From contig NZ_QXJP01000022.1 of assembly GCF_004115085.1 (NCBI RefSeq), forward strand, positions 32,325 through 64,324: 32,000 nt of DNA, written 5' to 3'. The DNA is from Longirhabdus pacifica (GTDB lineage Bacteria > Bacillota > Bacilli > Paenibacillales > DSM-105158). Below the pieces are notes generated by a model, which was given only the letters and a program-made list of their open reading frames with translations, was not told the origin of the DNA and did not search any database. Position 1 is the stretch's first letter. The number at the start of each line of letters is the position of its first letter. Made by a program: the position numbers and the translations under genes. This document shows, piece by piece, positions 9,629 to 28,897 of this stretch.

Positions 9629-9631
9629 AAC

Positions 9632-10651: not shown

Positions 10652-10684
10652 ACAAAATAAAATTAACTGAGGAAGGTGATTGAT

Positions 10685-11122: not shown

Positions 11123-11133
11123 AGAGATTTTAG

Positions 11134-11171
11134 TAGCGGTTTATTTCCTTATTAGAAATAAACCGCTTTTT
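11134..11171 (+). terminator. Intrinsic terminator-like hairpin directly after the tube gene, inside the structural operon
   Basis: agcggtttatttc (11134-11146) / gaaataaaccgct (11154-11166), a perfect 13-bp stem with a 7-nt loop, followed by ttttt. Confidence 0.75.
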
Positions 11172-11233
11172 ACTTTTATTCATGCAAGTATTTCATAGCA
11201 TTATTCTATTTTATACATTGGAGGAAAAATAAA

Positions 11234-11626: not shown

Positions 11627-11814
11627 TAAAGTCAGGTGGCATACCTTATTTAATGCATGAAATATTTCAAAGACAAGGGATACCACCTGACGAAATCTTC
11701 TCCAAACCTAGAATAGTCCAGCAATTTATGCTTTCTTCTATGATATTAGTACTTGAAGAAGAAGAGCGTGAAAGAAAGCGTACAACAAGGTTAAATCAGA
11801 AAGGAGGGAGATAG
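11623..11814 (+). CDS. -1 frame extension of the chaperone (G/GT-type fusion; missing from the ORF track)
   Basis: The -1 frame reads LIKSGGIPYLMHEIFQRQGIPPDEIFSKPRIVQQFMLSSMILVLEEEERERKRTTRLNQKGGR. Its stop TAG (11812-11814) directly abuts GTG 11815 of the tape measure gene. Confidence 0.65.
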   Translation, partial: LIKSGGIPYLMHEIFQRQGIPPDEIFSKPRIVQQFMLSSMILVLEEEERERKRTTRLNQKGGR

Positions 11815-13872: not shown

Positions 13873-13883
13873 GAGGTGATAAA

Positions 13884-14525
13884 GTGCAATTTTGGTTAAG
13901 TTACAATAACGAAGCGGAAACTTTTCAACTTCCAGTGAATCCACAAAACATCAGCATATCTTCTGGTCATAACTTTAACGATGTACAAGTTTCCAAACTT
14001 GGTGAGTTTACCATCATCGGAGAAGAGCAACTCAAACAGTATGATTTCTCATCTTTTTTTCCAAAAGACTATCAGCCGATGTATTGTGAATATGATGGCT
14101 TTCCAGAACCTTGGCAGGCAGTAAAGAAAATAGAAGAGTGGCAAAAGTCAGGTAACCCCGTTAGCTTTAAAATTACAAGTCATGATGAAACCCAAAAAGT
14201 AAATACCGCAGCAACCATCCGCTCATTCAATTACGAAGAAAAAGCGGGTAGCCCTGGAGATATTTACTTTACGATTAGTTTGAAGGAATTTAAATTCCTA
14301 GAATTTCAAAAAGTAGAAGGTCCCGATGACTTGCAAAAAGTAAGACCAAATAACCAAGAGAAAGTAACAACTTACATTGTAAAAAGCGGAGATTCATTAT
14401 GGAAAATTGCGCAAAAAACATTGGGAAATGGAAGTGAGTGGCGCAAAATTTATGATGCAAACGTCGATGTCATCGGACCGAATGAAAACTTGATTTACCC
14501 GAAACAAAAGTTGGTGATTCCATAA
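13884..14525 (+). CDS. xkdP: LysM-domain tail protein (XkdP-like)
   Basis: C-terminal LysM: YIVKSGDSLWKIAQKTLGNGSEWRKIYDAN...LIYPKQKLVIP. SD GGAGGTG lies before GTG 13884. Confidence 0.85.
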   Translation: MQFWLSYNNEAETFQLPVNPQNISISSGHNFNDVQVSKLGEFTIIGEEQLKQYDFSSFFPKDYQPMYCEYDGFPEPWQAVKKIEEWQKSGNPVSFKITSHDETQKVNTAATIRSFNYEEKAGSPGDIYFTISLKEFKFLEFQKVEGPDDLQKVRPNNQEKVTTYIVKSGDSLWKIAQKTLGNGSEWRKIYDANVDVIGPNENLIYPKQKLVIP

Positions 14526-15520
14526 TGAATTTACAAATAGCATATAACGGAGACTTTTATATTGATCCTATCGTGACTTCTGTTACATGGTCGGGAGATA
14601 TTAAACAGGCATTCCGCAAACTAGAACTTAGTATTTCCAATACGGAAAATGGGGATAATCCTATCATTACGTTTGAAAAAGGGAAACCACTAGTCCTTTC
14701 AAAAGACGATAAAGAACTATTTCGCGGTGTTATTTTTTCTCATTCTATGGAATTAGATGGGACGATGAAACTAACGGCATACGATGAAAATATATATTTA
14801 ACAAAAAACATGGATACGAAAAAATTTGTCAACATGACAGCTTCTGAAATTATCGGGCAGCTATGTAGTGAGTATGATATTCTCGTTGGATCGATTCAAG
14901 ATACAGGCTATGTGCTGCCAAAATTAATTTTACGAGACAAAACATTATGGGATATGATGATTACCGCCTTAACGGAAACGAAGAAACAAACCGGAAGGCG
15001 CTTTTTTATTTATTCTGAACAAGGAAAACTATTTGTTAAAGAACGCAAAGAAAGAGTAGTAGAGTGGGTTTTACAAAACGGATTTAACATATTAGGCGCA
15101 TCCTATTCTGAATCTATCGAAGACTTACGCAATCAAGTGAAGGTATACAGTGGAGATATTAATAAGGGTCCCTACGATGAAGAGATTGAGCATGACGATC
15201 AGTCTATTGAAAAATATGGTTTAATGCAGCATTTGGAAACGGCAAGCAACGATCAAAAACAGTCTCAACTAAAACAATTAGCAAAACAGTTATTAAAAGA
15301 CTTGAACAAAGTGTCGGAAGAAGCAAGCATCGAAGCATTAGGTCACGATGGCGTTATTTCTGGAACATCCGTGGATGTCACCGAAGCCATGACAGGCATG
15401 AAAGGTGCTTACTATGTCGTAACAGATAGTCATACTTTCGAGAACAATATGCATCGCATGCAAGTGACATTATCTGAAAAAGAAGAGCTTCCTACACTAG
15501 AATATACAGAGCAAGAGTAG
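14525..15520 (+). CDS. xkdQ: Baseplate hub / late-control-D-like tail protein (XkdQ-like)
   Basis: TAATG overlap with the previous gene. Size and N-terminus (..VTSVTWSGDIKQAFRKLELSI..) resemble XkdQ/YqbQ. Confidence 0.8.
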   Translation: MNLQIAYNGDFYIDPIVTSVTWSGDIKQAFRKLELSISNTENGDNPIITFEKGKPLVLSKDDKELFRGVIFSHSMELDGTMKLTAYDENIYLTKNMDTKKFVNMTASEIIGQLCSEYDILVGSIQDTGYVLPKLILRDKTLWDMMITALTETKKQTGRRFFIYSEQGKLFVKERKERVVEWVLQNGFNILGASYSESIEDLRNQVKVYSGDINKGPYDEEIEHDDQSIEKYGLMQHLETASNDQKQSQLKQLAKQLLKDLNKVSEEASIEALGHDGVISGTSVDVTEAMTGMKGAYYVVTDSHTFENNMHRMQVTLSEKEELPTLEYTEQE

Positions 15521-15555
15521 CATTGTAGTTTTCACCTGCTTAGGAGGAGGTAAAA

Positions 15556-16026
15556 ATGAAAGTGAATGAAGAAAAGCCAGAAGGCGGCTCCTATAGCAAG
15601 CTCATACAAATGATGCAAACATTCGGCTATAACAAAGATGTAGATGTCGAATTAGCAACCGTACTGTCTGTTGAACCTCTGAAAATTAAAGTGGACAATA
15701 TGAACATTGAATTAGAGGGTACGGATTTAATTGTAGCGGAGCAATTGTTGGAACATAAACGTACGTTAAACATAAATCAGCAGCCTATGACGGTGCAAGC
15801 AGATGTATCCCAACATGATATTAGCGCCACCAGTTCATGTACTGCTGGGGGTTCTACTATCCCCAATAATAACGTTACGTTTACAACATTAGGCTTGGAT
15901 GCCGAAGTTTCAGGAGAAAATATCGAAGTGACGATCATGTCTAAACTTGAAGTTGGAGACCGTGTTATTGTCGCCTCGATACAAGATAATCAAATTTTTG
16001 TCGTATTAGATAAGGCGGTGATTTAA
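15556..16026 (+). CDS. xkdR: Baseplate spike/plug-like protein (XkdR-like, DUF2577)
   Basis: Order in the cluster and the ..ATVLSVEPLKIKVDNMNIELEG.. pattern of the DUF2577 family. SD AGGAGGAGG upstream. Confidence 0.7.
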   Translation: MKVNEEKPEGGSYSKLIQMMQTFGYNKDVDVELATVLSVEPLKIKVDNMNIELEGTDLIVAEQLLEHKRTLNINQQPMTVQADVSQHDISATSSCTAGGSTIPNNNVTFTTLGLDAEVSGENIEVTIMSKLEVGDRVIVASIQDNQIFVVLDKAVI

Positions 16027-16440
16027 TTGGCTTTAAGCCCAATACAACAAGCGCCAAATGTAGAGATAAAAGAGAGTAGAAAGCAAATAGCATCGTCAAA
16101 GACATACCATTTTAATTTTGATACAGGCGAAATGAAAGGATTTGTAGATAGTTTACAAGCGATCAAACAATATATTCGTAAAGCACTATGTACGCCTAGA
16201 TTTCGCTATTTAATATATGATGACCAATACGGAAGTGAATTGGAAGAACTTATCGGCAAAGACGTTTCTAATGAGTTCATTTTTGCCGAAATTCCTCGTC
16301 TCGTAAGAGAAGCACTCATTTACGATGATCGAATTACAGACGTTAAAGATGTAAAAGTAAAGCGACAAGACGATGCTATCTACGTATCGTTTCAAGTAGA
16401 AACTTACCTAGGTAGCATACAAGAGGAGGTGAAGTTGTAA
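16027..16440 (+). CDS. xkdS: Baseplate wedge protein, gp25/W-like (XkdS-like, DUF2634)
   Basis: TTG start directly after the previous stop. ..TPRFRYLIYDDQYGSELEELIGK.. is typical of DUF2634. Precedes the baseplate J gene. Confidence 0.75.
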   Translation: MALSPIQQAPNVEIKESRKQIASSKTYHFNFDTGEMKGFVDSLQAIKQYIRKALCTPRFRYLIYDDQYGSELEELIGKDVSNEFIFAEIPRLVREALIYDDRITDVKDVKVKRQDDAIYVSFQVETYLGSIQEEVKL

Positions 16441-17549
16441 TGGCATATGAGAACGTAACAAAAGATGTTATTTTAGAGCGTATGTTAGGACAAGTGCCAG
16501 ATGACATTGATAAGCGACAAGGGTCTATCACGCATGATCTCTTATCGCCAGCAGCGATTGAACTAGCACAAACTTACATTCACTTAGATCAAGTACTTCG
16601 TTTTGGCTTTGCTGATACGACTTACGGTGAATATCTGGATTTACGCTGTGCAGAAATGGGTTTAACACGAAAAGCGGTAACGGAAGCAGAAGGACAAGTC
16701 ACGTTTACCGGACCTGATGGAACCGTCATCCCTGTTGGAACACAAGTTTCCTCATCCCCACTCATCGACAGTGATACCCTATATTACGTGACAACGGAAG
16801 AAGGTAAGGTTTTAAATGGCAGTGCGGCCGTGAACATTAAAGCTGTTACTGGAGGTGCACAAGGTAATGTGGAAGCACATTTCATTACTACCGTGATAGG
16901 AGATTTAAGCAGCGTATTGAGTGTGACAAATGATAAACAGACCGAAGGCGGAACAGACGAAGAATCAGATAAAGAATTGCTCGACAGATATTTAGAACAT
17001 GTACAGCAGTCTGGTACGAGTGGCAACGCCAACCATTACTTGCAATGGGCAAAAGAAGTCCCGGGTATATCTGAAGCGTTGGTCAAACCGCTTGCCAATG
17101 GACCAGGTACTGTAAAAGTGATCATTCTAGGTGATGATAAAAAAGCACCTTCTACCGAAATAACGGAAGATGTGGACAAGCATATTGAAAAAGTACGTCC
17201 CATTGGAGCAGATGTTACCGTAGAAGCAGCAACAGAAATTCCAATTACTATATCCGTAAAAATAGAATGGTTAGATGGCTACAAAGGACAACGGACATTA
17301 GAACAGTTACAGCAAAAAATTACAGAAGATATTACGCAATATTTAGCTTCATTAGCTTTTGCTGATCCTATCGTACGCCGCTCACAAATAGGAAATGTCA
17401 TACTCGATTTAGAAGCAGTCAAAGACTACGATGAACTATATATTAATGGACAAGCAACAGGTAATGTAGAAATTGCTATCCAAGATGGACAAGTAGCCGT
17501 ACTGTCTGAAAACGGTGTGACCGTAACAGAGAAGGAGGGAAGTGCATGA
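16440..17549 (+). CDS. xkdT: Baseplate J-like protein (XkdT-like)
   Basis: TAATG overlap with the previous gene. ..GSITHDLLSPAAIELAQ.. and ..GGTDEESDKELLDRY.. are baseplate-J family features. 369 aa. Confidence 0.85.
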   Translation: MAYENVTKDVILERMLGQVPDDIDKRQGSITHDLLSPAAIELAQTYIHLDQVLRFGFADTTYGEYLDLRCAEMGLTRKAVTEAEGQVTFTGPDGTVIPVGTQVSSSPLIDSDTLYYVTTEEGKVLNGSAAVNIKAVTGGAQGNVEAHFITTVIGDLSSVLSVTNDKQTEGGTDEESDKELLDRYLEHVQQSGTSGNANHYLQWAKEVPGISEALVKPLANGPGTVKVIILGDDKKAPSTEITEDVDKHIEKVRPIGADVTVEAATEIPITISVKIEWLDGYKGQRTLEQLQQKITEDITQYLASLAFADPIVRRSQIGNVILDLEAVKDYDELYINGQATGNVEIAIQDGQVAVLSENGVTVTEKEGSA

Positions 17550-18136
17550 ACAACAAAAACACCACTTCTCTAGAAAAAGTGACCCAAGATATGTTGGACT
17601 ACTTGCCAAGTTACTATCAGGACAATCGTATCGTTAACAATGTCATGAAGTTAGAAGCAAGTGAAGTAAAAGCATTAAATGATGCAGTACAAGATGTACT
17701 GCATCAATTTTTTGTAGACAAAGCAACATGGGGCTTAGACAATTGGGAACGCATTTGTGGTATTACTCCAGATTACACTAAAACACATGAAGAGCGACGT
17801 GCTGTCGTGCGTTCAAAACTAAGGGGCATTGGTACTGTGAATATCGAGTTGATGAAAGAAGTGGCAGAATCTTATAACTACGGGGAAGTAGACGTAGAAG
17901 AATTACCTGCTCAATATCAGATTAACGTTAGATTTGTTGGGAAACTTGGTATTCCCTCTAACCTCGATGATATCAAACAATCGCTGCAAGAAATTATCCC
18001 AGCGCATTTGAACATTAGCTTTGAATTTACGTTCATCATTTGGAACGATATGGACGCTAACCAGTTTACATGGGATGAATTGGATGGTGAAAATATCATT
18101 TGGAGCGAATTTGAAGCTTACGAGGAGGCTTTATAA
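17546..18136 (+). CDS. xkdU: Baseplate/tail-fibre connector protein (XkdU-like, DUF2313), copy 1
   Basis: ATGA overlap with xkdT-like. ..MLDYLPSYYQDNRI..ATWGLDNWERICGI.. is the DUF2313 signature. Confidence 0.8.
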   Translation: MNNKNTTSLEKVTQDMLDYLPSYYQDNRIVNNVMKLEASEVKALNDAVQDVLHQFFVDKATWGLDNWERICGITPDYTKTHEERRAVVRSKLRGIGTVNIELMKEVAESYNYGEVDVEELPAQYQINVRFVGKLGIPSNLDDIKQSLQEIIPAHLNISFEFTFIIWNDMDANQFTWDELDGENIIWSEFEAYEEAL

Positions 18137-19749
18137 TGCCTGACTTAACGTCAAAATTAGGAATCAAAAAACCGCATGGGAATGAGTATGTGAAGCGGGA
18201 AATGTTTAATGAAAATTGGGATATTATTGATGAAAATAGCGCTTCCCAATCGCAGCTAGACACGCATGAAAGTGACACCACTGTTCACATCACACAGCAG
18301 GAAAGAGAGCAATGGAACGAAACAGAAGCAAATGCTAAAGCATACACCGACCAACTTAGCGATACAATGCACTTCCAACGTAACTGCCTCATACTAGGTA
18401 ATAACGACTGGACGTCACTAGTATATGACACAGATATGAGTAAAATTGCTTATGATCCAGAACAACAAGGGGGAATCGTGAAAGATGAAACCGCTGTTCT
18501 CATTCGCACACGTATACCTATTGATCCTGAAAGTACGTACTACGCTAGGGTAAAGGTGAAGAAGTTAAGTGGAAATGGTACGTTTTATTGTGGTGCTGCT
18601 TCATTAGATAGTGATTTTAATGCAATTATGAAAGATCAAGCAACTAATTATAATTATTTTGCAGCTTTAGCAGCTACACCACCTGTTAACAACACAATGA
18701 CCTATGAAGGCACAATCAAGGGATACAATATTGAGAATGAAGCTGATCACCATAAATTTGATCCCAATGCAGCCTATTTTGATGTTGTTATAGTCTGTAA
18801 TTACTTAAATGATGGTACTGGAACAGGACAAACTTTAATCGAATCGTTGGAAGTGTATAAAGCACCTAATACTTTATATGTAGGTGATGCAAGAGTACAA
18901 ACAAAGAAAACGATAGACTTTGTTGTAGAAGGCGATGCCAACACGTACTATCCCGTTGTGTTTGAGGGGGTAGAGTTTACTGAAAATACAAGAAAGCATC
19001 GATTAGATATTTATCGTTCATACGGTTGGCAGGCACCATCAAGTTGGTATCCTGATTCCACAAATCATTTTGCTGGATTAAATCTCATCATAGATCAAAT
19101 GTTAATAGGTTGGTCTGGTGCTTCGTATGAGATGGATGTTACGATCGGTCAAACTTTTGAAACAACGGTAGCTGACATTATATGCTCTAGACCTGATACC
19201 TCTGTAGTGATTGTTTGGATGCGAGGTGGAGGTGCGGCATATCAAATAAGCTCAACTTCACCAAACATAAAAGTGGAAATATATTACGATAAATATGAAC
19301 GAAATCCAAGAACAGATTTACCTGAGTATAATACAACTTATTATCCTAAAACTGAGGTTAATGATAGATTGAAAATATCTGAAGATGGAATATCGACAGG
19401 AATACTAACACGGTTTAATTCTTCTGCTAATCATTATATTGGAGGGGGAATTCGTGCACCGTTAAAAGGTAATAAAGTATTAACCCAAGCTGACATGGGC
19501 GAATGGGGATTCTCACCAAATAAAGACTTTCAATACTTTGGTAAAAATGCTTTAGCTGTCAAAGATTTAGCTGTGGAAGAAAAACTAGTAATTAACCAAA
19601 ACAATGATTTTTCCCATGGCGTTGAAGTTGAAGGAACCTTAACAAACAACGGAGACAAAGTGTTAACAGAAGGAACATTAAAAATAGATAGTGACGGTAA
19701 CCTAAAATTCTATAACGGACAAAACTGGAAAACCGTTCGCTACTATTAA
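18136..19749 (+). CDS. Tail fibre / receptor-binding protein 1 (XkdV-like N-terminus), 537 aa
   Basis: TAATG overlap with xkdU-like. The N-terminal ..REMFNENWDIIDEN.. anchor motif is shared with fibres 2 and 3. The C-terminal ..KVLTEGTLKIDSDGNLKFYNGQNW.. motif is also shared. Confidence 0.8.
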   Translation: MPDLTSKLGIKKPHGNEYVKREMFNENWDIIDENSASQSQLDTHESDTTVHITQQEREQWNETEANAKAYTDQLSDTMHFQRNCLILGNNDWTSLVYDTDMSKIAYDPEQQGGIVKDETAVLIRTRIPIDPESTYYARVKVKKLSGNGTFYCGAASLDSDFNAIMKDQATNYNYFAALAATPPVNNTMTYEGTIKGYNIENEADHHKFDPNAAYFDVVIVCNYLNDGTGTGQTLIESLEVYKAPNTLYVGDARVQTKKTIDFVVEGDANTYYPVVFEGVEFTENTRKHRLDIYRSYGWQAPSSWYPDSTNHFAGLNLIIDQMLIGWSGASYEMDVTIGQTFETTVADIICSRPDTSVVIVWMRGGGAAYQISSTSPNIKVEIYYDKYERNPRTDLPEYNTTYYPKTEVNDRLKISEDGISTGILTRFNSSANHYIGGGIRAPLKGNKVLTQADMGEWGFSPNKDFQYFGKNALAVKDLAVEEKLVINQNNDFSHGVEVEGTLTNNGDKVLTEGTLKIDSDGNLKFYNGQNWKTVRYY

Positions 19750-19802
19750 CATAGATAGTATGAAAAGAAACAACATTTGATCTACCTGCAACATACCAAT
19801 CA

Positions 19803-19870
19803 GCAAAAGATGTGGATGGGTAGCGACCTTTGCGGTTTATGCAAGAGGAGCACCCAGCCACATCTTTTGC
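19803..19870 (+). repeat. Structured intergenic repeat, copy 1
   Basis: Perfect 13-bp outer stem gcaaaagatgtgg / ccacatcttttgc, 5-bp inner stem tgggt / accca, conserved 29-nt core gcgacctttgcggtttatgcaagaggagc (19823-19851). Confidence 0.75.
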
Positions 19871-19882
19871 GTTTCAACTAGC

Positions 19883-19946
19883 AAAATACATGTATGCATC
19901 GCGACTTTTGTGAACTACGCAAGTGGAGCAAGCAGGCATATATTTT
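19883..19946 (+). repeat. Structured intergenic repeat, copy 2
   Basis: Stem aaaatacatgtatgc / gcaggcatatatttt (15 positions: 2 mismatches, 1 G-T). Core gcgacttttgtgaactacgcaagtggagc (19901-19929). It ends 5 nt before SD GGGAGG of the second xkdU. Confidence 0.7.
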
Positions 19947-19993
19947 ACCTCGGGAGGCTGAATACCATACTAACTCGAAAATATAAACAAGAA

Positions 19994-20545
19994 ATGCTAG
20001 ATTACTTGCCACGTTATTACCAAGATGCACGCATCCCACAAAACATCGTAAATTTAGAAGCTGAAGAAGTACAGCAACTAAATGATGCCGTACAAGATGT
20101 ACTGGATCAATTTTTTGTATCTACCGCCACATGGGGGTTAGAACACTGGGAGCGTATTTGTGACATCCCAACAGATAATTTTAAGCCCGTCCAAGAAAGA
20201 CGCTCTGTCATTGAATCCAAGCTAAGAGGGGTCGGTACCGTTAATGCTGATCTCATCAAGACAGTAGCTAAAGCATACGTCAATGGTGAAGTAGAAATTA
20301 CGGAAAATCAAAAGTTATACCAGATTAACATCACATTTGTGGGTCAGCGCGGCGTGCCATCTAACTTAGCAGACATACAAAATGCCATTAATGAAATCGT
20401 CCCAGCACACTTACAAACGACATTTACATTCACGTACTTACCGTGGAGTGAATTAGAAGGTTATAAAACAACCTATAACGATATAAAAGCCTATCAGTGG
20501 GGCGAATTACAAACTATGTTTCTAAATGATAGCAATTCAACATAG
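19994..20545 (+). CDS. xkdU: XkdU-like DUF2313 protein, copy 2 (paralogue of 17546..18136)
   Basis: MLDYLPRYYQDARI..ATWGLEHWERICDI.. is colinear with copy 1. The start is uncertain. ATG 19994 has no SD. SD GGGAGG (19952-19957) is 9 nt before an in-frame ATA (19967). The ORF-track GTG at 19910 lies inside repeat copy 2. Confidence 0.75.
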   Translation: MLDYLPRYYQDARIPQNIVNLEAEEVQQLNDAVQDVLDQFFVSTATWGLEHWERICDIPTDNFKPVQERRSVIESKLRGVGTVNADLIKTVAKAYVNGEVEITENQKLYQINITFVGQRGVPSNLADIQNAINEIVPAHLQTTFTFTYLPWSELEGYKTTYNDIKAYQWGELQTMFLNDSNST

Positions 20546-20577
20546 TTAAAACTCAACGATGCGATGCTTAACTGAAC

Positions 20578-20641
20578 AAAGAAAGTAAGTGAAAAGTGAC
20601 TTTTGCTATTTTTGCAAAAGAAGTGTTCACTCACTTTCTTT
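20578..20641 (+). repeat. Structured intergenic repeat, divergent copy (copy 4)
   Basis: 16-bp stem aaagaaagtaagtgaa / ttcactcactttcttt (1 mismatch). Core gtgacttttgctatttttgcaaaagaagtg aligns with the other cores and carries a perfect inner 7-bp hairpin cttttgc / gcaaaag. Confidence 0.6.
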
Positions 20642-20652
20642 ACGCCTACCTA

Positions 20653-20720
20653 GCAGAATATATGTCTGTGCCGCGACTTTTGTGACCTATGCAAGTGGAG
20701 CAAACAGACATATGTTTTGC
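20653..20720 (+). repeat. Structured intergenic repeat, copy 3
   Basis: 17-bp stem gcagaatatatgtctgt / acagacatatgttttgc (2 G-T pairs, no mismatch). Core gcgacttttgtgacctatgcaagtggagc (20673-20701) matches the copy 2 core at 27 of 29 positions. Confidence 0.75.
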
Positions 20721-20731
20721 CCCCTATGTTC

Positions 20732-20791
20732 CATCTCTACTATCGTTCTTTTTTAAGCGAATTAAGAGCGTACGATAGTAGAGATGTTTTT
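20732..20791 (+). terminator. Perfect 15-bp hairpin plus T-run just upstream of the fibre-2 RBS (terminator-like)
   Basis: catctctactatcgt (20732-20746) / acgatagtagagatg (20772-20786) with a 25-nt loop, followed by ttttta. The large loop makes its efficiency uncertain. Confidence 0.55.
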
Positions 20792-20833
20792 ATATACAGT
20801 AAAGTTGCAAGATGAAAGGAGAGGAAATAATAG

Positions 20834-23764
20834 ATGAGCAATAACAAAACCAACCATTTGAATCTGAATGTATGGGAATCATCAGATTACGTACTACACG
20901 AAGAATTCAATGAAAATTTTCAAACAATAGATCTTGAAGTAGCAGACGCAAAAGAACACCTAACAAATTTACAAGATGAAGTGAATGATTTAGAAGAGAA
21001 TGTTGAGCATATTAAGCAAAAACTAGCGGATACATCGGCAACGACCATCTCTTTACAGCGAGGACAAAACATTGTAACTACCGAACAAGCATCTGGTGTT
21101 CGTATGACAGAGATAATAGGGAGGACAATGGTTAACTTGTTAGGTAGCGATGGCAACTGTGAGGACACAAGTAAATTTTCCGTGCAAATTGCTTTAAAAG
21201 CGGATACATTCCAGCTAAGTAAAGCGGATGCAGTGTATGGTGGACATGGGATTCGTGCTACTTTCTCCTTAGTAGATGATTTGGAATATGGAACTAGTTT
21301 TTATGGTATACGGAATTACAACATCAAACAAGGGAAACACTATTTAGCTGCGGCACATATTAAAGATAGTAGTTCATCAATTAAAGGAAATGTTGCTGTA
21401 AGAAAATTTAATACGGAATATCATATTCAAAGTACAGATAGTAAATTAACATCGACATTAGACTATGTCACTTTCACAGCAGATGGAACAGAAGAGAGTG
21501 TAGGGATATATTTTAATGTTTTAGCTAATGAGCAATGGTGTGCTTTTGATGGCTTAAGGCTATACGAAATAATAGAAAGTGAAAAAACCTACATCGACTC
21601 ACTTAGTATCATAGAAGCGGAAAAATACATTGCAACGCGATATCCATATGTTGAAGGTTTACGTTCTTTAACAAATCCATATGTCATTCGTTATGGTAGA
21701 AATGTCATCCCTCCCTTTTCTGATTGGAATTTGTCGGAGGAAACTACGATAGATAAAGATTATAAACTTACATTACGTGCTACAGAACATGAGCGATGGA
21801 GCATCAGTCCGCCTATTTCAGTAGTTGCTGGTGAAGCCTATGCTTTTAGTGCTGACACTATGGACGGTAACGCCATCTATCAGTCGTGGAATGATGAAGG
21901 TGAGATCATAGAGGAAGAAGTCTTAGAAAATAACAGCTCACTTACCATTTCTGATGAAGCAGTGAAGATGACCATAAAAATAGGCAATACAGTGGAAAAA
22001 GGTACAGGTACATTCGGTTTTGAAAATTTAATGTTGGCGTTAGGCACAGCAAAAGTCAATTTTGAACCGCAAAACAATGATGAAATGTATGTCGAAACCG
22101 TCCTGCGATCAAGTATGGACGGTGAAGTATATGATTCGATCACTGAGCGAGACGGGATATTATACAAGAATAAGCGCATGGATCATATTGAGTTAACTGG
22201 AAAAATAATTTATAGATTAGTTGAAGATGTGTCAGGGGTAAAGAAAATAAGGCTTTCTAATGAATTTTTAGATAATTTCTTTAAGACATTTAAGAAAAAA
22301 CCAAACAAGCACCTATTAATAAAATATAACAATCAATTATTGGAACAAAGTATAGATGAAACAATAAAAGCAGATGCCTTTACTATATCGGAAGAAAAAG
22401 CTGTATTTATTTTTCTCTCCGACGAGGATACAGGCTGGGAAAATTATAATCCTTCTGAATGGGATATTTGTAGATATTTTAACGGTTGGAAATACATTGA
22501 TGGTGAGAAGTGGGAAAGCATTACAGGAAATAATGAAATTACAAATAGCTTACAATCACAAAAATCAATGCCTTCTAACTACACGCCTTATCAACTTCAA
22601 TATGAACTTGAAGAACCCATAGAAGAAGTAATTGAAGGTCAGTTAGGACTATCGTTTCTTACAGGGAAGAACCAAGTAGAGGTTGGTGAAGGAATTATTG
22701 TACAGGAGGAAGTTAGACCGAGAATTTTCAACTCTCAATACTGGATTAACGCTGCATTTGCAGAAAATCTTGGTGAACAATTGCCAAAGAAAAATTCAAA
22801 AATTTCATGTGTGTATCGGGACGGAAGGAAGGATGCTAATTGGAGTATTGCACCACATAATACTGATCTTGTATCTATGTATGGTAAAGAATACGCAGTT
22901 ATTTCTGAATATGACTATCATTCCGATTCAACTTACACCGTTACCTATCAAATGATAAATTCGTTAACTCCACCAATGTCTACAATGCATTTAGAATATG
23001 AGGGTAGTTTGCATACTGTAGTGGAATCTTTAGTGCAAAAAACAGCCGATCTGTCCAAGGAACTTACTTCTGTAACGAATAAAATAGATAGTGCTAAACA
23101 ATATTCCAACAAGTTAGAAAAAGAGATGCTGCATACCAAAGATACATTGTTGCTCGGTAATAATGATTGGTCCCCTTTAATATACGACTATAATAGTGAA
23201 GGATCTGTTGCATATCGTGCAGAGCATCAAGGTATTGTATTCACAGACGAGTGCTGGACAAAGGTTAGAATGAGAATGCCTGTTGACCCAGATAGTACGT
23301 ATTTTGTAAAGGCAAAAGTGAAGAAATTAGAAGGGGAAGAAGATACTAAATTTTGGTTGGGTGCGATCTCTCTTGATAACAATTATAACGAACTGCTTTA
23401 TGATACAGCCCATGTATACAATTATTTTGGAGCGGAGTTTCAAAATATATCGGCAGGAGAAACTGCATTTTTTGAGAGTGCAATTTCGGGTTATAACACA
23501 CCAGAGGAGAATTCCCATAATAAATTTGATCCAGATGCAAAATACTGGGATTTAGTGGTTATATGTAATTATGTAAATAGTTTAGACATTGTCGGAAAAG
23601 GTGAAACACTCATAGAATGGATTGAAGTAAGAAAAGCCCCATCCACTTTTTATGTAGGAGATAATAAAGTACTGGATGAAAGCACAATCCAAATCTCAAG
23701 CGACGGTAAGTTGCATTATAAATATAACGACAATTGGTATGAACTAAGTGGGATTCAAAAATAG
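20834..23764 (+). CDS. Tail fibre / receptor-binding protein 2, 976 aa (mosaic)
   Basis: N-terminal ..LNVWESSDYVLHEEFNENFQTID.. anchor. About 750 aa are colinear with fibre 3. The C-terminal 211 aa are homologous to fibre 1 aa ~77-253, plus the shared terminal motif ..ISSDGKLHYKYNDNWYELSG. SD AAAGGAGAGG upstream. Confidence 0.85.
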   Translation: MSNNKTNHLNLNVWESSDYVLHEEFNENFQTIDLEVADAKEHLTNLQDEVNDLEENVEHIKQKLADTSATTISLQRGQNIVTTEQASGVRMTEIIGRTMVNLLGSDGNCEDTSKFSVQIALKADTFQLSKADAVYGGHGIRATFSLVDDLEYGTSFYGIRNYNIKQGKHYLAAAHIKDSSSSIKGNVAVRKFNTEYHIQSTDSKLTSTLDYVTFTADGTEESVGIYFNVLANEQWCAFDGLRLYEIIESEKTYIDSLSIIEAEKYIATRYPYVEGLRSLTNPYVIRYGRNVIPPFSDWNLSEETTIDKDYKLTLRATEHERWSISPPISVVAGEAYAFSADTMDGNAIYQSWNDEGEIIEEEVLENNSSLTISDEAVKMTIKIGNTVEKGTGTFGFENLMLALGTAKVNFEPQNNDEMYVETVLRSSMDGEVYDSITERDGILYKNKRMDHIELTGKIIYRLVEDVSGVKKIRLSNEFLDNFFKTFKKKPNKHLLIKYNNQLLEQSIDETIKADAFTISEEKAVFIFLSDEDTGWENYNPSEWDICRYFNGWKYIDGEKWESITGNNEITNSLQSQKSMPSNYTPYQLQYELEEPIEEVIEGQLGLSFLTGKNQVEVGEGIIVQEEVRPRIFNSQYWINAAFAENLGEQLPKKNSKISCVYRDGRKDANWSIAPHNTDLVSMYGKEYAVISEYDYHSDSTYTVTYQMINSLTPPMSTMHLEYEGSLHTVVESLVQKTADLSKELTSVTNKIDSAKQYSNKLEKEMLHTKDTLLLGNNDWSPLIYDYNSEGSVAYRAEHQGIVFTDECWTKVRMRMPVDPDSTYFVKAKVKKLEGEEDTKFWLGAISLDNNYNELLYDTAHVYNYFGAEFQNISAGETAFFESAISGYNTPEENSHNKFDPDAKYWDLVVICNYVNSLDIVGKGETLIEWIEVRKAPSTFYVGDNKVLDESTIQISSDGKLHYKYNDNWYELSGIQK

Positions 23765-23835
23765 AGTAATTAGTTGTAAACATCGGCGTTAGTTCTTATC
23801 TAATTTTAGTAATGTGAAAGGAGAGGAAATAATAG

Positions 23836-26565
23836 ATGAGCAAGAAAACAGAAAATCTCGAGCTTCATACATGGGAATCATCAGATTATGTACTACACGA
23901 AGAATTTAATGAGAATTTTGAAACGATAGATACAACCGTGCAAGAAGTAAAGGATAGTGTAAACGATTTGCAAAGTGATTTAGGAGAAATACAGGGGAAA
24001 TTAGCAGATTCAACAAACAAAATAGTAACATTAAAACGAGGACACAATAAAGTCACGACTAATCAAGCTACCAATGTAACCTTTGATCAAATACGTGGGC
24101 GTACATTGATTAATTTATTAGGAAGAGAAGGGAATTGTGAGGAAGAAAGTAAATTTTCCGTTCAAATTGGTCAAGTAGCCAGTTCTTTTCAATCGAATAA
24201 GGAAAATGATTTTAACGGTAAATACGGTATAAAAGTATACTTTGACTTAGCAGATCAATATCCTGCTTCAAGTTACTATGGTATTCCTACTCAACATATT
24301 ATAAGCGGTAGAAACTATCTATTTGCATCAGTTATAAAAGATGGAAGTAGTTCTATTACTGGAACAGTAGCGGTAAGAAAGTCAGGAGGGTACCATAAAC
24401 TAAGTAACAAGAATAACAGTGCTTCATTTATTTTAGATTATGTAACATTCACCGCTGATGGTACAGAAAACAATGTTGGAATTCATTTTAAAATTGATTC
24501 AAATAATCAGTGGGTTGCTTTCGATAGTTTGCGTTTATATGAAATTTCTGACGAAGAAAAGACCTATATCGATTCTCTCACGCTTGAGGAAGCAACAAGT
24601 TATATCACAGTAGCTTATTCGTATGTAGATAGTGTGCAATCAATACAATGTCCTTATATCATTCGACATGGAAAAAACATGATACCTCCATTTCATGCAT
24701 GGGAATTAAGTAATGATATGATGATCCATGAAGACTACAGTGCAACATTAAATGCAACAGCATCTTCCACATTTAGTTATAGTCCAAAAATCCCGATAGT
24801 ACCTGAAGAAAATTATACTCTGAGCATGGATAAAGTAGAGGGGCAGCTGATATATCAGCTGTGGGACGATCAAGATGATCTTGTGATGGAGTCAGAGGTG
24901 ATTGGTGAAGTAACTTTCTCTCCTCCACCCAATGCTGTTAGTTTGAGCTTGAAATTAGGTATTACTTCATTTGAGACACCAGAGATGTATGTATTTGAGA
25001 ATCCAATGCTTAGCATAGGATCAAAAGTGATGAAATTCGAACCGAAAAATGATGATTTAGTATTTTTTAATACTAGCCTATGTTCGAGTATGGATAACGA
25101 GAAAGCAGATACAATAACAGAGCGTGAAAATAAATTGTACAAAACAACATGGTTTGAGAAGAAAGAATTGGATGGGTCGATGAATTGGCAATTACATGAA
25201 GAGGGATCTGGATACAAAATAGTAAAACTCTTAAACTTTGCAATAAATAAATCAATAGATATGAGTAATCTTGTTCTTATTTCTTATAACGGTCAAATTG
25301 TTGAAAATGAAGACTTTATATTAGAGAACGGAAGTTTACACATTAAGATTATGAATAGTGATAGTGGTTGGTCAGATATTACTCCCAATCCATATGATAT
25401 AAAAAGATATTTTAACGGGTGGAAATATAATGACGGAGAATTGGATCAAAGTGTTTTAAATGAAGACGAAAAAGTAGATAAGGGAACAGCGGTTCTTTAT
25501 AAATCATTTCAGTATACGCCTTATACAATCGTATACCAACTACAACAGTCTATTGAAGAAGAAATAGAGGGTCAAGTTGGTTTATCCCTTTTTGAAGGAG
25601 AGAATCAGTTAACTTTTGGTGAGGGGTTAATAGTAAAAGAAACAGTTACACCTAAATATTTCAATTCAAAGTATTGGATTAATGGTGCTTTTGAAGATAG
25701 CGAAGGATTAAGCTATAAAACAAAAAAAATCTTAGATGTATATGAAAATGGAAATGAAAAAGCAAGCTGGTCGAGAGTTTTTCATGAAGATGTAGATATA
25801 AAGCATTATGGTGATGAGCAAGCCATCATTGAAACTGGAAACTTTAATAAGAATGCCCAATATAGTGTTACTTATTTTGTAGCTGATAGTTTAAGTACAA
25901 AAGTACAACATATAGATATGCTTTATGATACAAATTTAAATATGGTAGTTCGTGAACTTGTTCAAGATATAGCTGACCAGAAACAGCAACTAGCTCAAGT
26001 TAATCATTCTTTATCTGAAAAGTATCTACGAAACGAAGGGAATCAATATAAAGAAGGGAAATTATACATTCGTCATGAAGGAGATGGTTTAGAGTTATTT
26101 CATCATGATACAAATGGATATGCTGGGATACAGTTGCATAGTAAAGGGAATGAAAACTCTGATTACGGTTATATTCGTTACTATGATGAAGCAAAGAATT
26201 TTGCTGAAGGTTTGTATGATTTACAAGAAGGGTTAGCAAATGGTGCGGATGTAAAAGAAGAAGGGTTGTTAGTTATTGGTTCAGAGAATGATCCACATAG
26301 CGTATTTGGTCCAGATCATTTGGTACTCAGAAGTGGTGCGAGGTTTATATTTGATGTAAATACAATGGTTTATGATTCAACAGACAATATATTAGCAGAG
26401 TTTCGATATAACGGAGATGTGAAAGCATATATGGACAACAATGGTGAAATCATTATTAATGATAATAAAGTATTACATGAAGGTAATATTCGAGTAAGCG
26501 ACGATGGGAAGTTGCAATATAAGTATAATAATGAGTGGTACAGCATGTCTGGAACAAAATCTTAA
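23836..26565 (+). CDS. Tail fibre / receptor-binding protein 3, 909 aa (paralogue of fibre 2 with a different tip)
   Basis: A 29-nt stretch (tgaaaggagaggaaataatagatgagcaa) spanning the RBS, start codon and first codons is identical to that of fibre 2. The N-terminal ~715 aa are colinear with fibre 2. The C-terminal ~190 aa are unrelated except for the final ..VSDDGKLQYKYNNEWYSMSG motif. Confidence 0.85.
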   Translation: MSKKTENLELHTWESSDYVLHEEFNENFETIDTTVQEVKDSVNDLQSDLGEIQGKLADSTNKIVTLKRGHNKVTTNQATNVTFDQIRGRTLINLLGREGNCEEESKFSVQIGQVASSFQSNKENDFNGKYGIKVYFDLADQYPASSYYGIPTQHIISGRNYLFASVIKDGSSSITGTVAVRKSGGYHKLSNKNNSASFILDYVTFTADGTENNVGIHFKIDSNNQWVAFDSLRLYEISDEEKTYIDSLTLEEATSYITVAYSYVDSVQSIQCPYIIRHGKNMIPPFHAWELSNDMMIHEDYSATLNATASSTFSYSPKIPIVPEENYTLSMDKVEGQLIYQLWDDQDDLVMESEVIGEVTFSPPPNAVSLSLKLGITSFETPEMYVFENPMLSIGSKVMKFEPKNDDLVFFNTSLCSSMDNEKADTITERENKLYKTTWFEKKELDGSMNWQLHEEGSGYKIVKLLNFAINKSIDMSNLVLISYNGQIVENEDFILENGSLHIKIMNSDSGWSDITPNPYDIKRYFNGWKYNDGELDQSVLNEDEKVDKGTAVLYKSFQYTPYTIVYQLQQSIEEEIEGQVGLSLFEGENQLTFGEGLIVKETVTPKYFNSKYWINGAFEDSEGLSYKTKKILDVYENGNEKASWSRVFHEDVDIKHYGDEQAIIETGNFNKNAQYSVTYFVADSLSTKVQHIDMLYDTNLNMVVRELVQDIADQKQQLAQVNHSLSEKYLRNEGNQYKEGKLYIRHEGDGLELFHHDTNGYAGIQLHSKGNENSDYGYIRYYDEAKNFAEGLYDLQEGLANGADVKEEGLLVIGSENDPHSVFGPDHLVLRSGARFIFDVNTMVYDSTDNILAEFRYNGDVKAYMDNNGEIIINDNKVLHEGNIRVSDDGKLQYKYNNEWYSMSGTKS

Positions 26566-26607: not shown

Positions 26608-26910
26608 TTGGATTACAAAGATTCGGGGGAGGTGGACATCATAGATAGCCAATACAACATCATCGATTATTTTACACTGTATGGGCCGTTTGCGGTCCTT
26701 TTTGTTAGCTTATTTTTTTGGACGTTGAAAACATATAATACGAGAGAAGAATTGTATCGCAGTGAGATAGCAAACATTCGCAAAGAGTATGATATACAGT
26801 CCCAGCGACATCATGAGATATTAACCAAATTTGCAGAAAAATATGATATTGTTATAGATAAGTTGAACGCACTAGAAATAAAAATAGATACGAGTAAATA
26901 TGATGAATGA
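26608..26910 (+). CDS. bhlA: BhlA/UviB-family holin-like membrane protein
   Basis: Single N-terminal TM ..GPFAVLFVSLFFWTL.. followed by KTYNTREE and a charged coiled-coil tail, as in BhlA/UviB. The start is uncertain. TTG 26608 has no SD. SD GGAGG (26628-26632) precedes in-frame ATC 26638 and ATA 26641. Confidence 0.7.
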   Translation: MDYKDSGEVDIIDSQYNIIDYFTLYGPFAVLFVSLFFWTLKTYNTREELYRSEIANIRKEYDIQSQRHHEILTKFAEKYDIVIDKLNALEIKIDTSKYDE

Positions 26911-26973
26911 TCATGAATGATGGATTTCATTCGGGTTGCTTATTGTAGCTATGCTGTCCTTTCATAAACGAAA

Positions 26974-27011
26974 GTAAGCCGTCCTATGCTTCAAACAGCT
27001 AGACGGCTTAC
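26974..27011. terminator. 10-bp perfect hairpin between convergent transcription units (right edge of the island)
   Basis: gtaagccgtc (26974-26983) / gacggcttac (27002-27011) with an 18-nt loop. There is no strong T-run on either side. Confidence 0.45.
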
Positions 27012-27048
27012 TACAATTATATAAATGAGCCAATCTTCTATAACAAAC

Positions 27049-27357
27049 TTAAAAGTATAAGGATAACAATAAAATTAACTGGTAGATCGCTATGCCAAAA
27101 CAAAATAAAGCAACGAGAAACGAATATATAATGACAACGGTATGAGATTTATTCAAAATTTCTTGAATGCCTACTAAGCTAAGCATTATTGTTAGTAAAA
27201 CAAATGAGGTAAATTCTAGTATATATGTTGTCTCGTCTAACGTCTTAGATTTACAGTACAGCATAACAGCAACTATAGCTAAGAAAACTTGGAGTGCTAA
27301 AACTAGTTTGGAATGTTTTTTCATATATAACAAAACATGCTGCATCATCCTGATCAC
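27049..27357 (-). CDS. Small integral membrane protein (about 3 TM segments), unknown function
   Basis: Hydrophobic segments LVLALQVFLAIVAVMLY, FTSFVLLTIMLSLVGI, VVIIYSFLVALFCFGIAIYQLILLL. No family recognised. Confidence 0.5.
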   Translation of the reverse strand: MIRMMQHVLLYMKKHSKLVLALQVFLAIVAVMLYCKSKTLDETTYILEFTSFVLLTIMLSLVGIQEILNKSHTVVIIYSFLVALFCFGIAIYQLILLLSLYF

Positions 27358-27383
27358 TCCCGCTTCGCTCTTAATAACTAACC

Positions 27384-27605
27384 CTACTTGACTCCATACA
27401 ACGGCTGTCTGCTTTCTTTCAACTTAGAAAGCTTTCTCATGAGGATAACTAGTAAAAGATTTACTATAAAAGTGAATAAAAACAGAATGCCAGCTACAAT
27501 CGAAACGATAACCGCCTTAATTAGCTCCTTTTCAAGCTCAGGTGCATAATTAACAGGCACATAATCTGTGAAAGTTGCTCCTTCATTACTTTTTCCACTT
27601 ATCAT
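27384..27605 (-). CDS. Small single-pass membrane protein, unknown function
   Basis: TM AVIVSIVAGILFLFTFIVNLLLVIL followed by a basic tail. ATGA overlap with the upstream ORF 27602..27784. Confidence 0.4.
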   Translation of the reverse strand: MISGKSNEGATFTDYVPVNYAPELEKELIKAVIVSIVAGILFLFTFIVNLLLVILMRKLSKLKESRQPLYGVK

Positions 27606-27889
27606 AATGGAATATGCAATATAAGAAAGATGATCAGGGTTTTATTGACTAAATATAGTGATCCTATCGGAATCCCTAATGAATTGGCTTCATTTATCTC
27701 TAACTCATAATCAGAGGAACTTGCTGTTATAAACACATCACTGTTTTTTATTCCCATTGGAGCTTCCATACGTTCTATAGTCAATGCTTCTTTTGGCTGA
27801 TCAAGCTCTTGTGATTGAAAATAGAGATAGTTCCCTCCCTAACTCAATATAAGCAGAAATAAACTAATCCAAAGTACTTTTTGTTTCAA
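27602..27889 (-). pseudogene. Secreted/membrane protein gene interrupted by an in-frame TAG
   Basis: On the minus strand, SD GGAG then TTG 27889 opens MKQKVLWISLFLLILS (signal-peptide-like). An in-frame TAG follows at 27841-27839. The same frame then continues into the 60-aa ORF 27602..27784. Confidence 0.4.
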
Positions 27890-28069
27890 CCATTTTTAAC
27901 TCCTACAATGATACTGAATTCATTATACAATATATAAATATTTATGGAAAATAAAGGGTGTATGAGAACCGAAACAAATGATTCATCTTAGAACCAAAAG
28001 GAATCCGAATAAAATGCAAGTTGATGCCTGAGTACAAAGCCGTAAAAGTAATATTTAGTAGGACAAACA

Positions 28070-28897
28070 ATGTGGAAGGATAAAACGATCAACATGCAAG
28101 AAAGTGAGTATTTCATTAGAGAAAGGATCACGAACGATGAAAATGCAAAAAACCTTTTACTACTTCACGGTTTAGGTTGGACAAGCGAGATCTGGTCTTC
28201 TACAGCTAGAATCATAAAAAAACACTACCGAATCATCGCCCCAGACTTAGCAGGGCACGGGAATAGTTCAGATGCTCCTTCATATGAGTTTGATACACTA
28301 GCTGAACATCTAACAAGATTACTTGAAGCGTTAAACATAGAGAAAACGGTCGTTGTTGCAAGTTCGTGGGGCGCTGACCTAGCTGTTAAATTTTCCAGTA
28401 TGTATCCGCAGTATGTAGAGCATCTCGTACTTTTGGATGGTGGTTATCATCCTGTTAGCAAAGTGCCTGGGTTGCAATGGGAAATGCTTGAACAGCAAGA
28501 GTTTCCAGAAGAAGCATTGCAAGACTTGTCATCTTTTTTTACATTTATGAAATCCGATGATCCTGACCTATGGAATGAAGATATTGAACATGCAGTCCGT
28601 GACCAAGTAAATATAAGGGAAGATGGTAAAGTTACTTTTAAATTGAAAAGAGAAGCTCAAATCGCTTGCTTGAAAACGATGTGGGATTTCGATCCATTTG
28701 ATGCTGAAAATACGTTGAAAGTGCCTACAACGGTTGTAGTTGCGATGAATAAAAATGAATCTTCAGAGATGAGAGATTTTAAATTAAAGCAAAGTCATGC
28801 ATTTTGTAATAAAAATAATGCTAAAGAAGTGATATTGGAAAATACAGATCATTTAATTATGTTGGATTCTCCGCAAAAAGTGGCAGCGTTTATTTGA
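28070..28897 (+). CDS. Alpha/beta-fold hydrolase
   Basis: LLLLHGLG oxyanion region, nucleophile elbow VASSWGA, ..NTDHLIMLD.. catalytic His region, 275 aa. Confidence 0.8.
   Translation: MWKDKTINMQESEYFIRERITNDENAKNLLLLHGLGWTSEIWSSTARIIKKHYRIIAPDLAGHGNSSDAPSYEFDTLAEHLTRLLEALNIEKTVVVASSWGADLAVKFSSMYPQYVEHLVLLDGGYHPVSKVPGLQWEMLEQQEFPEEALQDLSSFFTFMKSDDPDLWNEDIEHAVRDQVNIREDGKVTFKLKREAQIACLKTMWDFDPFDAENTLKVPTTVVVAMNKNESSEMRDFKLKQSHAFCNKNNAKEVILENTDHLIMLDSPQKVAAFI

Follow-up and report, generated by a model that had tools for sequence, protein, structure and literature searches.

Two XkdU adaptor paralogues and three anchor-bearing fibres in a head-less, tailocin-like contractile-tail cluster of Longirhabdus pacifica

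Contractile-tail clusters related to the one studied here usually run from xkdT to a single xkdU and a single anchor-bearing fibre gene. Why, then, does a cluster in Longirhabdus pacifica have the gene order xkdT-xkdU-fibre-xkdU'-fibre'-fibre''? The stretch analysed, referred to below as the window, comprises 32,000 nucleotides (nt) of contig NZ_QXJP01000022.1, and positions are given in window coordinates throughout. Five genes raise the question, all of them on the plus strand in one co-directional array: XkdU-1 (17546-18136, 196 amino acids [aa]), fibre 1 (18136-19749, 537 aa), XkdU-2 (19967-20545, in a frame that is open from 19910 and gives 211 aa when read from the GTG at 19910), fibre 2 (20834-23764, 976 aa) and fibre 3 (23836-26565, 909 aa). 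An earlier, sequence-only reading of the stretch had reported these five open reading frames (ORFs), and all were found with the positions and lengths that it gave. Given that the probability of a stop-free ORF was 1e-7 to 2e-35 at the local base composition, the long ORFs of the region are not chance occurrences; the remaining frames hold 13 to 119 stops. The best explanation for the arrangement, which we hold with moderate confidence, is that two adaptor-fibre sets are co-expressed, with particles, or the population of particles, showing up to three receptor-binding proteins (RBPs).

Both XkdU paralogues belong recognisably to one family. XkdU-1 matched PF10076 (Phage_Mu_Gp48; gathering score, 37.4 bits) with 130 bits and XkdU-2 with 129.7 bits, both also matched phrog_521, and the two proteins are 52% identical over 187 aa (BLASTP). 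These matches, together with an anchor motif in all three fibres, confirm that two XkdU paralogues and three anchor-bearing putative RBPs occur in one cluster, as had been claimed from the sequence alone. Among structures in the PDB, both paralogues matched TRI-1 of diffocin (8v3w_N; E = 9.5e-18 for XkdU-1 and 2.9e-15 for XkdU-2), and their other matches were phage triplex proteins and Mu gp48. By these alignments, XkdU is a homologue of diffocin Tri1 and Mu gp48, and hence the predicted single wedge subunit that holds the fibre by its C-terminal region. In diffocin, the wedge triplex is built from two copies of CD1371 and one of CD1372 (Tri1), and the C-terminal region of Tri1 joins the tail fibre (PMC10996793); in Mu, there is one gp48 per wedge, and a gp48 loop docks the N terminus of the trimeric fibre (PMC11915804). 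The alignment of the paralogues to Tri1 stops at a common PAHL motif, and it is past this motif that their divergent tails lie. Identity between XkdU-1 and XkdU-2 is 57 to 75% over aa 1-100 and 45 to 60% over aa 100-160, compared with 14 to 20% over the last ~35 aa. The C-terminal tail of XkdU-1, IIWNDMDANQFTWDELDGENIIWSEFEAYEEAL, is named type D here, and that of XkdU-2, LPWSELEGYKTTYNDIKAYQWGELQTMFLNDSNST, type E.

The fibres, for their part, differ in their N-terminal anchors. The FNEN(W/F)..ID motif singled out by the sequence-only reading is real, reading REMFNENWDIID in fibre 1, HEEFNENFQTID in fibre 2 and HEEFNENFETID in fibre 3, and it represents one form of a more general N-terminal anchor, ..NLxLKKP...D.V.I..LN.N.D.ID. 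The anchor of fibre 1 is of the canonical KLGIKKP kind. Fibre 2 has a derived anchor, LNLNVWESSDYVLHEEFNENFQTID, and that of fibre 3 is of the same type, with 19 of 21 residues identical, compared with 43% identity overall. Related loci for comparison were drawn from IMG/VR and GTDB genomes by XkdU scans (69 loci) and from Aneurinibacillus by way of fibre 2 homologues (four loci), a sample that is biased by the search patterns, and XkdT, XkdU and anchor-bearing ORFs were mapped in all of them. In ~40 of these loci, a hidden Markov model of the general anchor placed it on the gene 3' of xkdU.

When XkdU tails and the anchors of the fibres that follow them were listed side by side, both fell into discrete types, and the types traveled together. 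Across 39 non-redundant XkdU-fibre pairs, tail similarity correlated with anchor similarity (r = 0.88), and the partial correlation after regressing out the similarity of the XkdU cores was 0.76, a value reached in none of 2,000 permutations (P ≤ 5e-4). Since the window and one related locus, L058, each carry two different pairs side by side, they serve as internal controls. The tail of XkdU-1 groups with those of L031 (nearest), the second adaptor of L058 (L058-U', second nearest) and L029, and the fibre encoded next to L058-U' has the anchor most similar to that of fibre 1. For the derived anchor shared by fibres 2 and 3 (L.L..W.SSDYV...EFNENF.TID), the closest counterparts are on the fibres of L039 and L038, whose XkdU tails end in WSELETKFF and WGELETAFLDN, respectively, compared with WGELQTMFLNDS in XkdU-2. 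These comparisons favour two cognate adaptor-fibre sets, one of XkdU-1 and fibre 1 and the other of XkdU-2 and fibres 2 and 3, and they suggest that XkdU tails would have a physical docking specificity for fibre anchors.

The XkdU tails have an internal pattern as well. Both tails in the window (18030-18136 and 20440-20545) and those of the XkdU genes of L005-L063 contain three W-x-[DE]-Φ pseudo-repeats (Φ, hydrophobic) spaced 8 to 10 residues apart. Such a pattern may be a device by which a monomer docks a trimer.

If both sets are functional, the late array would be induced as one SOS-controlled unit and transcribed under the element's own sigma factor. With one XkdU (Tri1/gp48) per wedge and six per baseplate, the two adaptors would compete for six positions, both of them keeping the putative triplex-forming core and differing in the C-terminal docking tail. 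XkdU-1 would then recruit fibre 1, and XkdU-2 would recruit either fibre 2 or fibre 3, which combine a near-identical anchor with different distal parts. Stochastic assembly of this kind would produce mosaic particles or a mixed population with up to three RBPs and a broader killing range, and the ratio of the sets would probably be governed by RNA hairpins within the array, the terminator-like site ahead of fibre 2 and the weak ATA start of XkdU-2. We thus infer that both sets co-assemble and that their ratio is tuned. Co-expression with stochastic assembly is the default because the genes lie co-directionally in a single late array that has neither a recombinase nor an invertible segment: none of the ORFs in the window contains a recombinase domain, and no long inverted repeats were found around the fibres, the repeats present being direct. 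Invertible or shufflon-type switching was rejected on the same grounds.

The intergenic regions on either side of xkdU-2 hold the structures invoked above. A hairpin repeat of ~74 nt is present in four plus-strand copies, two on each side of xkdU-2, in tandem and flanking it exactly: copy 1 (19800-19873, -40.8 kcal/mol) and copy 2 (19878-19951, overlapping the stop-to-stop ORF of xkdU-2 at its 5' end) on one side and copy 4 (20573-20646, diverged, 37.9 bits, E ~1e-7 to 1e-9) and copy 3 (20650-20723, -30.5 kcal/mol) on the other. The apical core, GCGACYTTTGYG..YTAYGCAAGWGGAGCA, is conserved, and the outer stem varies with compensation; in the alignment, 94% of cells are paired, and six pairs show double changes. 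The covariation score, for which all the evidence comes from this single locus, was 0.467, compared with 0.213 in shuffles (0 of 500 reached it) and at most 0.16 in slid controls. G·U pairs and model scores (93 bits versus 20 to 33 bits on the opposite strand) favour the mRNA-sense strand. Reading the repeats as coding sequence was rejected, given that the copies read in inconsistent frames and that the compensatory changes favour structure. Searches for relatives of the hairpin were negative: Rfam 15 gave no match at gathering thresholds (only chance-level microRNA and small nucleolar RNA hits at E > 1), the core pattern had no match in IMG/VR or in JGI metagenomes, blastn found none in phage and plasmid collections, and the covariance model matched none of the 73 related loci.

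No U-runs follow these repeats. A 25-bp hairpin that is unrelated to them, followed by the U-run TTTTTATAT, forms an intrinsic-terminator-like site on the plus strand at 20732-20786, 47 nt 5' of the fibre 2 start. A similar terminator-like site with a U-run lies just after the tube gene (11135-11167), and both sites are candidate attenuators that would set subunit stoichiometry. A search of the inter-module gaps for a shared late-promoter motif found none.

Translation starts in the cluster follow a common pattern, with a GGAGG-type Shine-Dalgarno (SD) sequence 6 to 10 nt before the start of every tail gene except xkdQ and xkdS; the SD sites of fibres 2 and 3 are perfect. The start of xkdU-1 overlaps the stop of xkdT. 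The xkdU-2 gene instead comes after fibre 1 and two hairpins, and its sole SD sequence, GGGAGG (19952-19957), is followed 9 nt on by ATA (19967); no SD sequence precedes the GTG at 19910, which falls within a hairpin repeat. The holin-like gene behind fibre 3 is laid out in the same way, with an SD sequence at 26625-26632 and then an ATA at 26641, a position that fits the N terminus of the BhlA profile, and its TTG at 26608 has no SD sequence. The combination of SD sequence and ATA in these two genes may reflect deliberate weak initiation or the decay of a start codon.

Several of these observations, and some others, weigh against co-expression of two working sets. No ATG, GTG or TTG stands at SD distance in xkdU-2, only the ATA, and XkdU-2 may be made at a very low level or not at all. 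The terminator-like hairpin before fibre 2 is strong, and no promoter-like site lies between the two. The correlation between tails and anchors (r = 0.88) is partly inflated, as adjacent genes are inherited together, an effect that the XkdU-core control reduces but does not remove. None of the three fibres is followed by XkdW/XkdX-type small genes or chaperones, unlike in relatives, and no endolysin (amidase or lysozyme ORF) was found in 26910-28070 or elsewhere in the window. Finally, the AlphaFold2 (AF2) model of fibre 1 is too poor for use (predicted local distance difference test [pLDDT] score, 37).

Among the alternatives to co-expression, the one that survives best holds that module 2 (xkdU-2, fibre 2 and fibre 3) is normally off and is turned on by read-through, antitermination or RNA processing, which would yield sub-populations of particles with different targets. 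Four structured repeats flanking xkdU-2 exactly, with covariation support and a bias to the mRNA-sense strand, are what such a gate might look like, as is a terminator-like hairpin with its U-run directly before fibre 2; moreover, the three fibre genes of Kosakonia have been reported in separate operons (PMC6629978). We nevertheless consider a gate rather unlikely, since we recognised neither an antiterminator nor a riboswitch nor any known RNA family, the repeats are not followed by U-runs, and no promoter-like site separates the terminator-like site from fibre 2. The similar site after the tube gene, too, suggests plain stoichiometric attenuation rather than a switch.

The unusual start of xkdU-2 raises a second alternative, namely, that module 2 is part of a partly defunct mosaic: it would have been gained by recombination, its 5' junction replaced by hairpins and XkdU-2 silenced, with fibres 2 and 3 left as orphans or docking on XkdU-1. 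Besides the lack of a canonical start, BLASTP similarity to XkdU-1 begins at "NT," ~2 to 3 codons 5' of the ATA, so hairpin 2 may have replaced the ancestral 5' end of xkdU-2. In relatives, xkdU and xkdT are translationally coupled, which is not the case for xkdU-2, and the backbone (339-aa sheath type) has different nearest relatives than the fibre 2/3 family (found mostly in 482-aa-sheath clusters of the Cohnella type). The genes themselves, however, do not look decayed. Over 193+ codons, the frame of xkdU-2 is uninterrupted and keeps every residue that is invariant in the family; its SD sequence is perfect and correctly spaced from the ATA, a layout that the holin gene shares. Fibres 2 and 3 are likewise intact over their 976 and 909 codons, and their conserved anchors correspond in type to the XkdU-2 tail. 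A defunct module 2 therefore strikes us as quite improbable.

Are fibres 2 and 3 parts of the particle at all? Fibre 2 consists of the derived anchor, a helix, tandem beta-sandwiches resembling carbohydrate-binding modules (CBMs), a long helix (aa 727-772), a distal module like one in fibre 1 and a C-terminal motif. Its AF2 model, which shows the tandem beta-sandwiches, has a mean pLDDT of 62, with values of 70 to 90 over aa 70-550 and 586-720 and a poor distal ~250 aa. The best Foldseek matches of this model in the PDB were CBM22, CBM4, CBM16 and the C-terminal CBM-like domains of Cry1A (Cry1Ac) and Vip3, so that the predicted fold fits a carbohydrate-recognising RBP. Matches to CBMs and to the C-terminal domains of the Cry and Vip3 protoxins would also suit free or cell-wall-associated carbohydrate-binding proteins or toxins, and phrog_13022, which matches both fibres at E ~1e-103 (7e-105 for fibre 2), is annotated as "unknown function"; searches of the two proteins found no fibre-like Pfam domain. 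Even so, a non-structural role is very unlikely. The N-terminal anchor was found only on genes directly behind xkdU in the ~40 loci, and in 17 related loci, mostly from Cohnella, where it stands directly behind xkdU, a fibre 2/3 homologue is the sole fibre candidate behind XkdU. In addition, aa 429-557 of fibre 2 match annotated tail-fibre proteins of SPO1-like Bacillus phages, and neither fibre 2 nor fibre 3 contains a signal peptide or an enzymatic domain.

Fibre 1 is built differently, with its canonical anchor followed by a helix, a beta-rich module (aa 66-272), an unassigned distal part and a C-terminal motif of ~30 aa. The beta-rich module (18331-18951) and aa 753-964 of fibre 2 (23090-23725) are versions of one ~200-aa module, with 43% identity. 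Its location, proximal in fibre 1 but distal in fibre 2, points to domain shuffling between the fibre sets. All three fibres end in a motif of ~30 to 35 aa, KVL.EG.I.I..DG.L.Y.Y...W...SG (19650-19749, 23660-23764 and 26460-26565), which is also found in the Longirhabdus protein P0017. The motif resembles the T4 fibritin foldon, but the likeness is not backed by a statistically supported match and serves as no more than a lead. The closest relatives of fibre 1 are the L. pacifica proteins P0017 and P0019. Fibres 1 and 2 are rare: a word-indexed search of 5.8 billion proteins returned 15 matches with fibre 2 as the query and 4 with fibre 1, tblastn added further relatives (~27% identical) in the related loci, and PDB sequence searches with the three fibres gave no usable match.

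The sequence-only reading had taken a 29-nt stretch shared by fibres 2 and 3, covering the ribosome-binding site (RBS) and start, as the mark of a recent tandem duplication. The identity is exact (TGAAAGGAGAGGAAATAATAGATGAGCAA at 20813-20841 and again at 23815-23843, both on the plus strand; two matches in the window versus none in 100 shuffles), and the first 90 nt of the two genes are 80% identical. Similarity 5' of the genes is limited to the 29-nt block, however, and the proteins are 43% identical over their first ~750 aa, with differing distal parts (~150 aa in fibre 3) and a common C-terminal motif of ~35 aa. When the genes were aligned by codon, identity at third positions was 0.69 over the first 30 codons and 0.27 to 0.5 over ~95% of the length. 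Given 43% amino acid identity and near-saturated third positions, the duplication is, as far as codon comparison can tell, old, and the RBS/start and anchor of the two fibres are apparently held constant by selection or local gene conversion. That the fibre gene was duplicated recently and its copies have not yet diverged in function is thus extremely improbable, the codon-level comparison and the differing distal domains effectively refuting it in spite of the identical block and the similar first 90 nt.

What kind of element carries the two adaptors and three fibres? From its gene content, it is a head-less, apparently SOS-controlled contractile-tail cluster (~7.7 to 26.9 kb) that resembles an R-type tailocin. 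Every contractile-tail component, i.e., sheath, tube, tape measure, baseplate hub and wedge, and fibre, was matched across 9170-26565 (Pfam and PHROG), and the xkdK-to-xkdV tail synteny of PBSX-type elements is present. The tail core (9170-17549, plus strand) opens with a 152-aa pre-sheath protein that starts at 9170 and continues with the sheath (start at 9632), tube (10676), XkdN chaperone (11234), tape measure (11815), LysM protein XkdP (13884), YQBQ/XkdQ (14525), XkdR (15556), sheath initiator XkdS (16027) and Baseplate_J protein XkdT (16440). Capsid, portal, terminase and connector genes were found neither between the upstream host genes and the sheath nor elsewhere in the window. The closest backbone relatives (L029, L032 and L034), with sheaths that are 56 to 59% identical and tubes that are up to 70% identical, carry connector or capsid genes directly 5' of the homologous pre-sheath gene. 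The label "PBSX-type element" given by the sequence-only reading accordingly had to be dropped, since the head and packaging genes (xtmA/B and xkdE-G) that give PBSX-type elements their DNA-containing particles are absent from the window.

Regulation of the cluster can be read from its 5' end. Three perfect GAAC-N4-GTTC boxes, the B. subtilis LexA consensus, each stand just behind a promoter-like site, serving ORF 7794-8303 and the sigma-factor gene. The first, a LexA/Cheo-type SOS box (AGAACAAATGTTC, 7756-7768), lies 3' of a sigma-A-like promoter (7724-7752) and 5' of ORF 7794-8303; the other two are arranged in tandem (8395-8420), 3' of a promoter-like site at 8365-8393 and 5' of the sigma-factor gene. 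The latter (8415-8876, plus strand; Sigma70_r4, TIGR02937 and phrog_3512 "sigma factor," E = 5e-24) encodes a small sigma-factor-like protein resembling the late regulator Xpf, and its real start is probably downstream of 8415. The boxes suggest that the tail cluster is apparently under direct SOS (LexA) control. At the other end, a BhlA-family holin-like protein (26608-26910, plus strand; PF10960 and phrog_2429) follows fibre 3. Given the full sheath-to-baseplate set, the lack of head genes and the LexA boxes, the element is tailocin-like rather than a PBSX-type particle with heads, and its function would be bactericidal.

The sequence-only reading had also called several RBPs per particle, or alternative adaptor-fibre sets, unusual for a PBSX-type element, a view that stands only in part. 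Tandem modules recur in L058, L051 and Aneurinibacillus, Cohnella-type clusters have two fibres, and R-tailocins with three fibres have been published (PMC6629978). L058 (4671-11767 of that locus) has the order xkdT-xkdU-fibre-XkdW/X-xkdU'-fibre', with two different tail/anchor types, of which the U'/fibre' pair is of the same type as XkdU-1/fibre 1. L051 (3730-12757) has two xkdT-xkdU-fibre sets, and both loci are independent stacked cases. In the Aneurinibacillus clusters (L001, 2903-13617; L003, 3008-13757; L071; L073), XkdS-XkdT-XkdU-fibre-XkdW/X occurs twice with a non-coding gap of ~230 to 350 nt between the sets, and the second fibre (L001-L003, L071 and L073) is homologous to fibres 2 and 3. 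The Cohnella-type loci L013 (9986-14325), L015 (9201-13559) and L025 (9986-14344) place two anchor-bearing fibres (~330 to 360 and ~860 to 880 aa) behind a single xkdU. Unlike the window, L058, L051 and the Aneurinibacillus clusters have no doubled fibre behind the second adaptor, no hairpin repeats and no ATA start, and in L051 and Aneurinibacillus, xkdT (and xkdS) is duplicated as well. Stacked adaptor-fibre modules are thus a recurrent minority solution in this group, and the arrangement in the window is the most expanded in the sample.

A more far-reaching proposal would treat tail/anchor pairs as a "docking code" with at least five types across Paenibacillaceae-like clusters, whose cassettes are stacked on one scaffold to make multivalent or switchable tailocins. 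In L. pacifica, the so far undescribed ~74-nt hairpin repeat would delimit the cassette, serving to mark its boundary or to gate its expression (by RNA processing, attenuation or recombination). Taken as a whole, we regard this proposal as unlikely.

Comparison with known systems narrows down what sets the locus apart. Diffocin of Clostridioides difficile (8v3w; PMC10996793), like the predicted product of the window element, is a Gram-positive head-less contractile tail, with a wedge of two Baseplate_J-like subunits and one Tri1. In diffocin, a single Tri1 gene goes with a single fibre/RBP set and its chaperones, whereas the window has two Tri1 paralogues, three RBPs, no recognisable chaperones and no endolysin. 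The PBSX-like elements of Bacillus and PTLB of Brevibacillus laterosporus (PMC9406221) share the xkdK-M-N-O-P-Q-R-S-T-U-fibre order, an Xpf-like sigma factor and a BhlA-type holin with the window. PBSX, however, makes heads, packages DNA and carries a single xkdU and a single xkdV, in contrast to the two xkdU genes and three fibres of the window, where no head or packaging genes occur in the ~3 kb that separate the sheath from the host genes.

Several fibres per cluster are best documented in other lineages. Up to three tail-fibre genes per R-tailocin cluster have been described for tailocin 2 of Pseudomonas chlororaphis 30-84 and for kosakonicin (PMC6629978), and fibre-gene deletion mutants of P. 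chlororaphis show distinct killing spectra, according to the same review. These tailocins resemble the window in having several fibres and in the rationale of a broader target range. They differ in that the multiplicity lies in fibre and chaperone genes, a duplicated adaptor not being mentioned in the review, by whose description alone they were compared, and in belonging to a P2/Mu-like lineage with lipopolysaccharide receptors and different fibre families. In the Mu G segment, the P1 C segment and carotovoricin, too, alternative fibres on a gp48-family adaptor change the host range. There, however, an invertase (Gin in Mu, Cin in P1) switches the fibre C terminus and its chaperone on a single adaptor, whereas the window has complete tandem fibres with an adaptor paralogue of their own. 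Our literature search found no description of a Tri1/gp48 adaptor duplicated with matched fibre anchors in one cluster, nor any of typing by XkdU tail and fibre anchor. Multi-fibre tailocins are therefore already known, and it is the duplicated, matched adaptor that is unusual.

If XkdU tails do discriminate between anchors, they would be natural orthogonal connectors for loading several RBPs in set proportions onto one Gram-positive tailocin, and multi-RBP loading is the current bottleneck in engineering diffocin-like antibacterials. The target range of tailocins could then widen at the level of the adaptor and not only at that of the fibre, and a rule that is readable from sequence (tail type equals anchor type) would assign fibres to baseplates in multi-fibre prophages. 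The hairpin repeats and the two starts that combine an SD sequence with ATA offer leads on how expression ratios may be set within a late operon, the repeats being the most unexplained part of the locus.

The element, of ~20 kb, is bracketed by host genes. Upstream, these encode a UbiD_C protein, a HEPN protein, an oxidoreductase, MqnE/MqnC-like radical S-adenosylmethionine enzymes and an iron-sulfur assembly protein (6232-6591), and they end at 6591. MqnE is at most 80% identical to public sequences, with its best matches in Ferviditalea and Paenibacillus. About 2.6 kb of small regulatory ORFs separate the iron-sulfur gene from ORF 9170. Downstream, the ORFs between 26910 and 28070 are all small, membrane-protein-like and on the minus strand (one has DUF3953), and host genes restart at 28070 with a hydrolase. 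The HEPN protein (872-1564; HEPN_Cthe2314 family, E = 1.6e-42), which is unrelated to the tail cluster, may be defence or toxin related.

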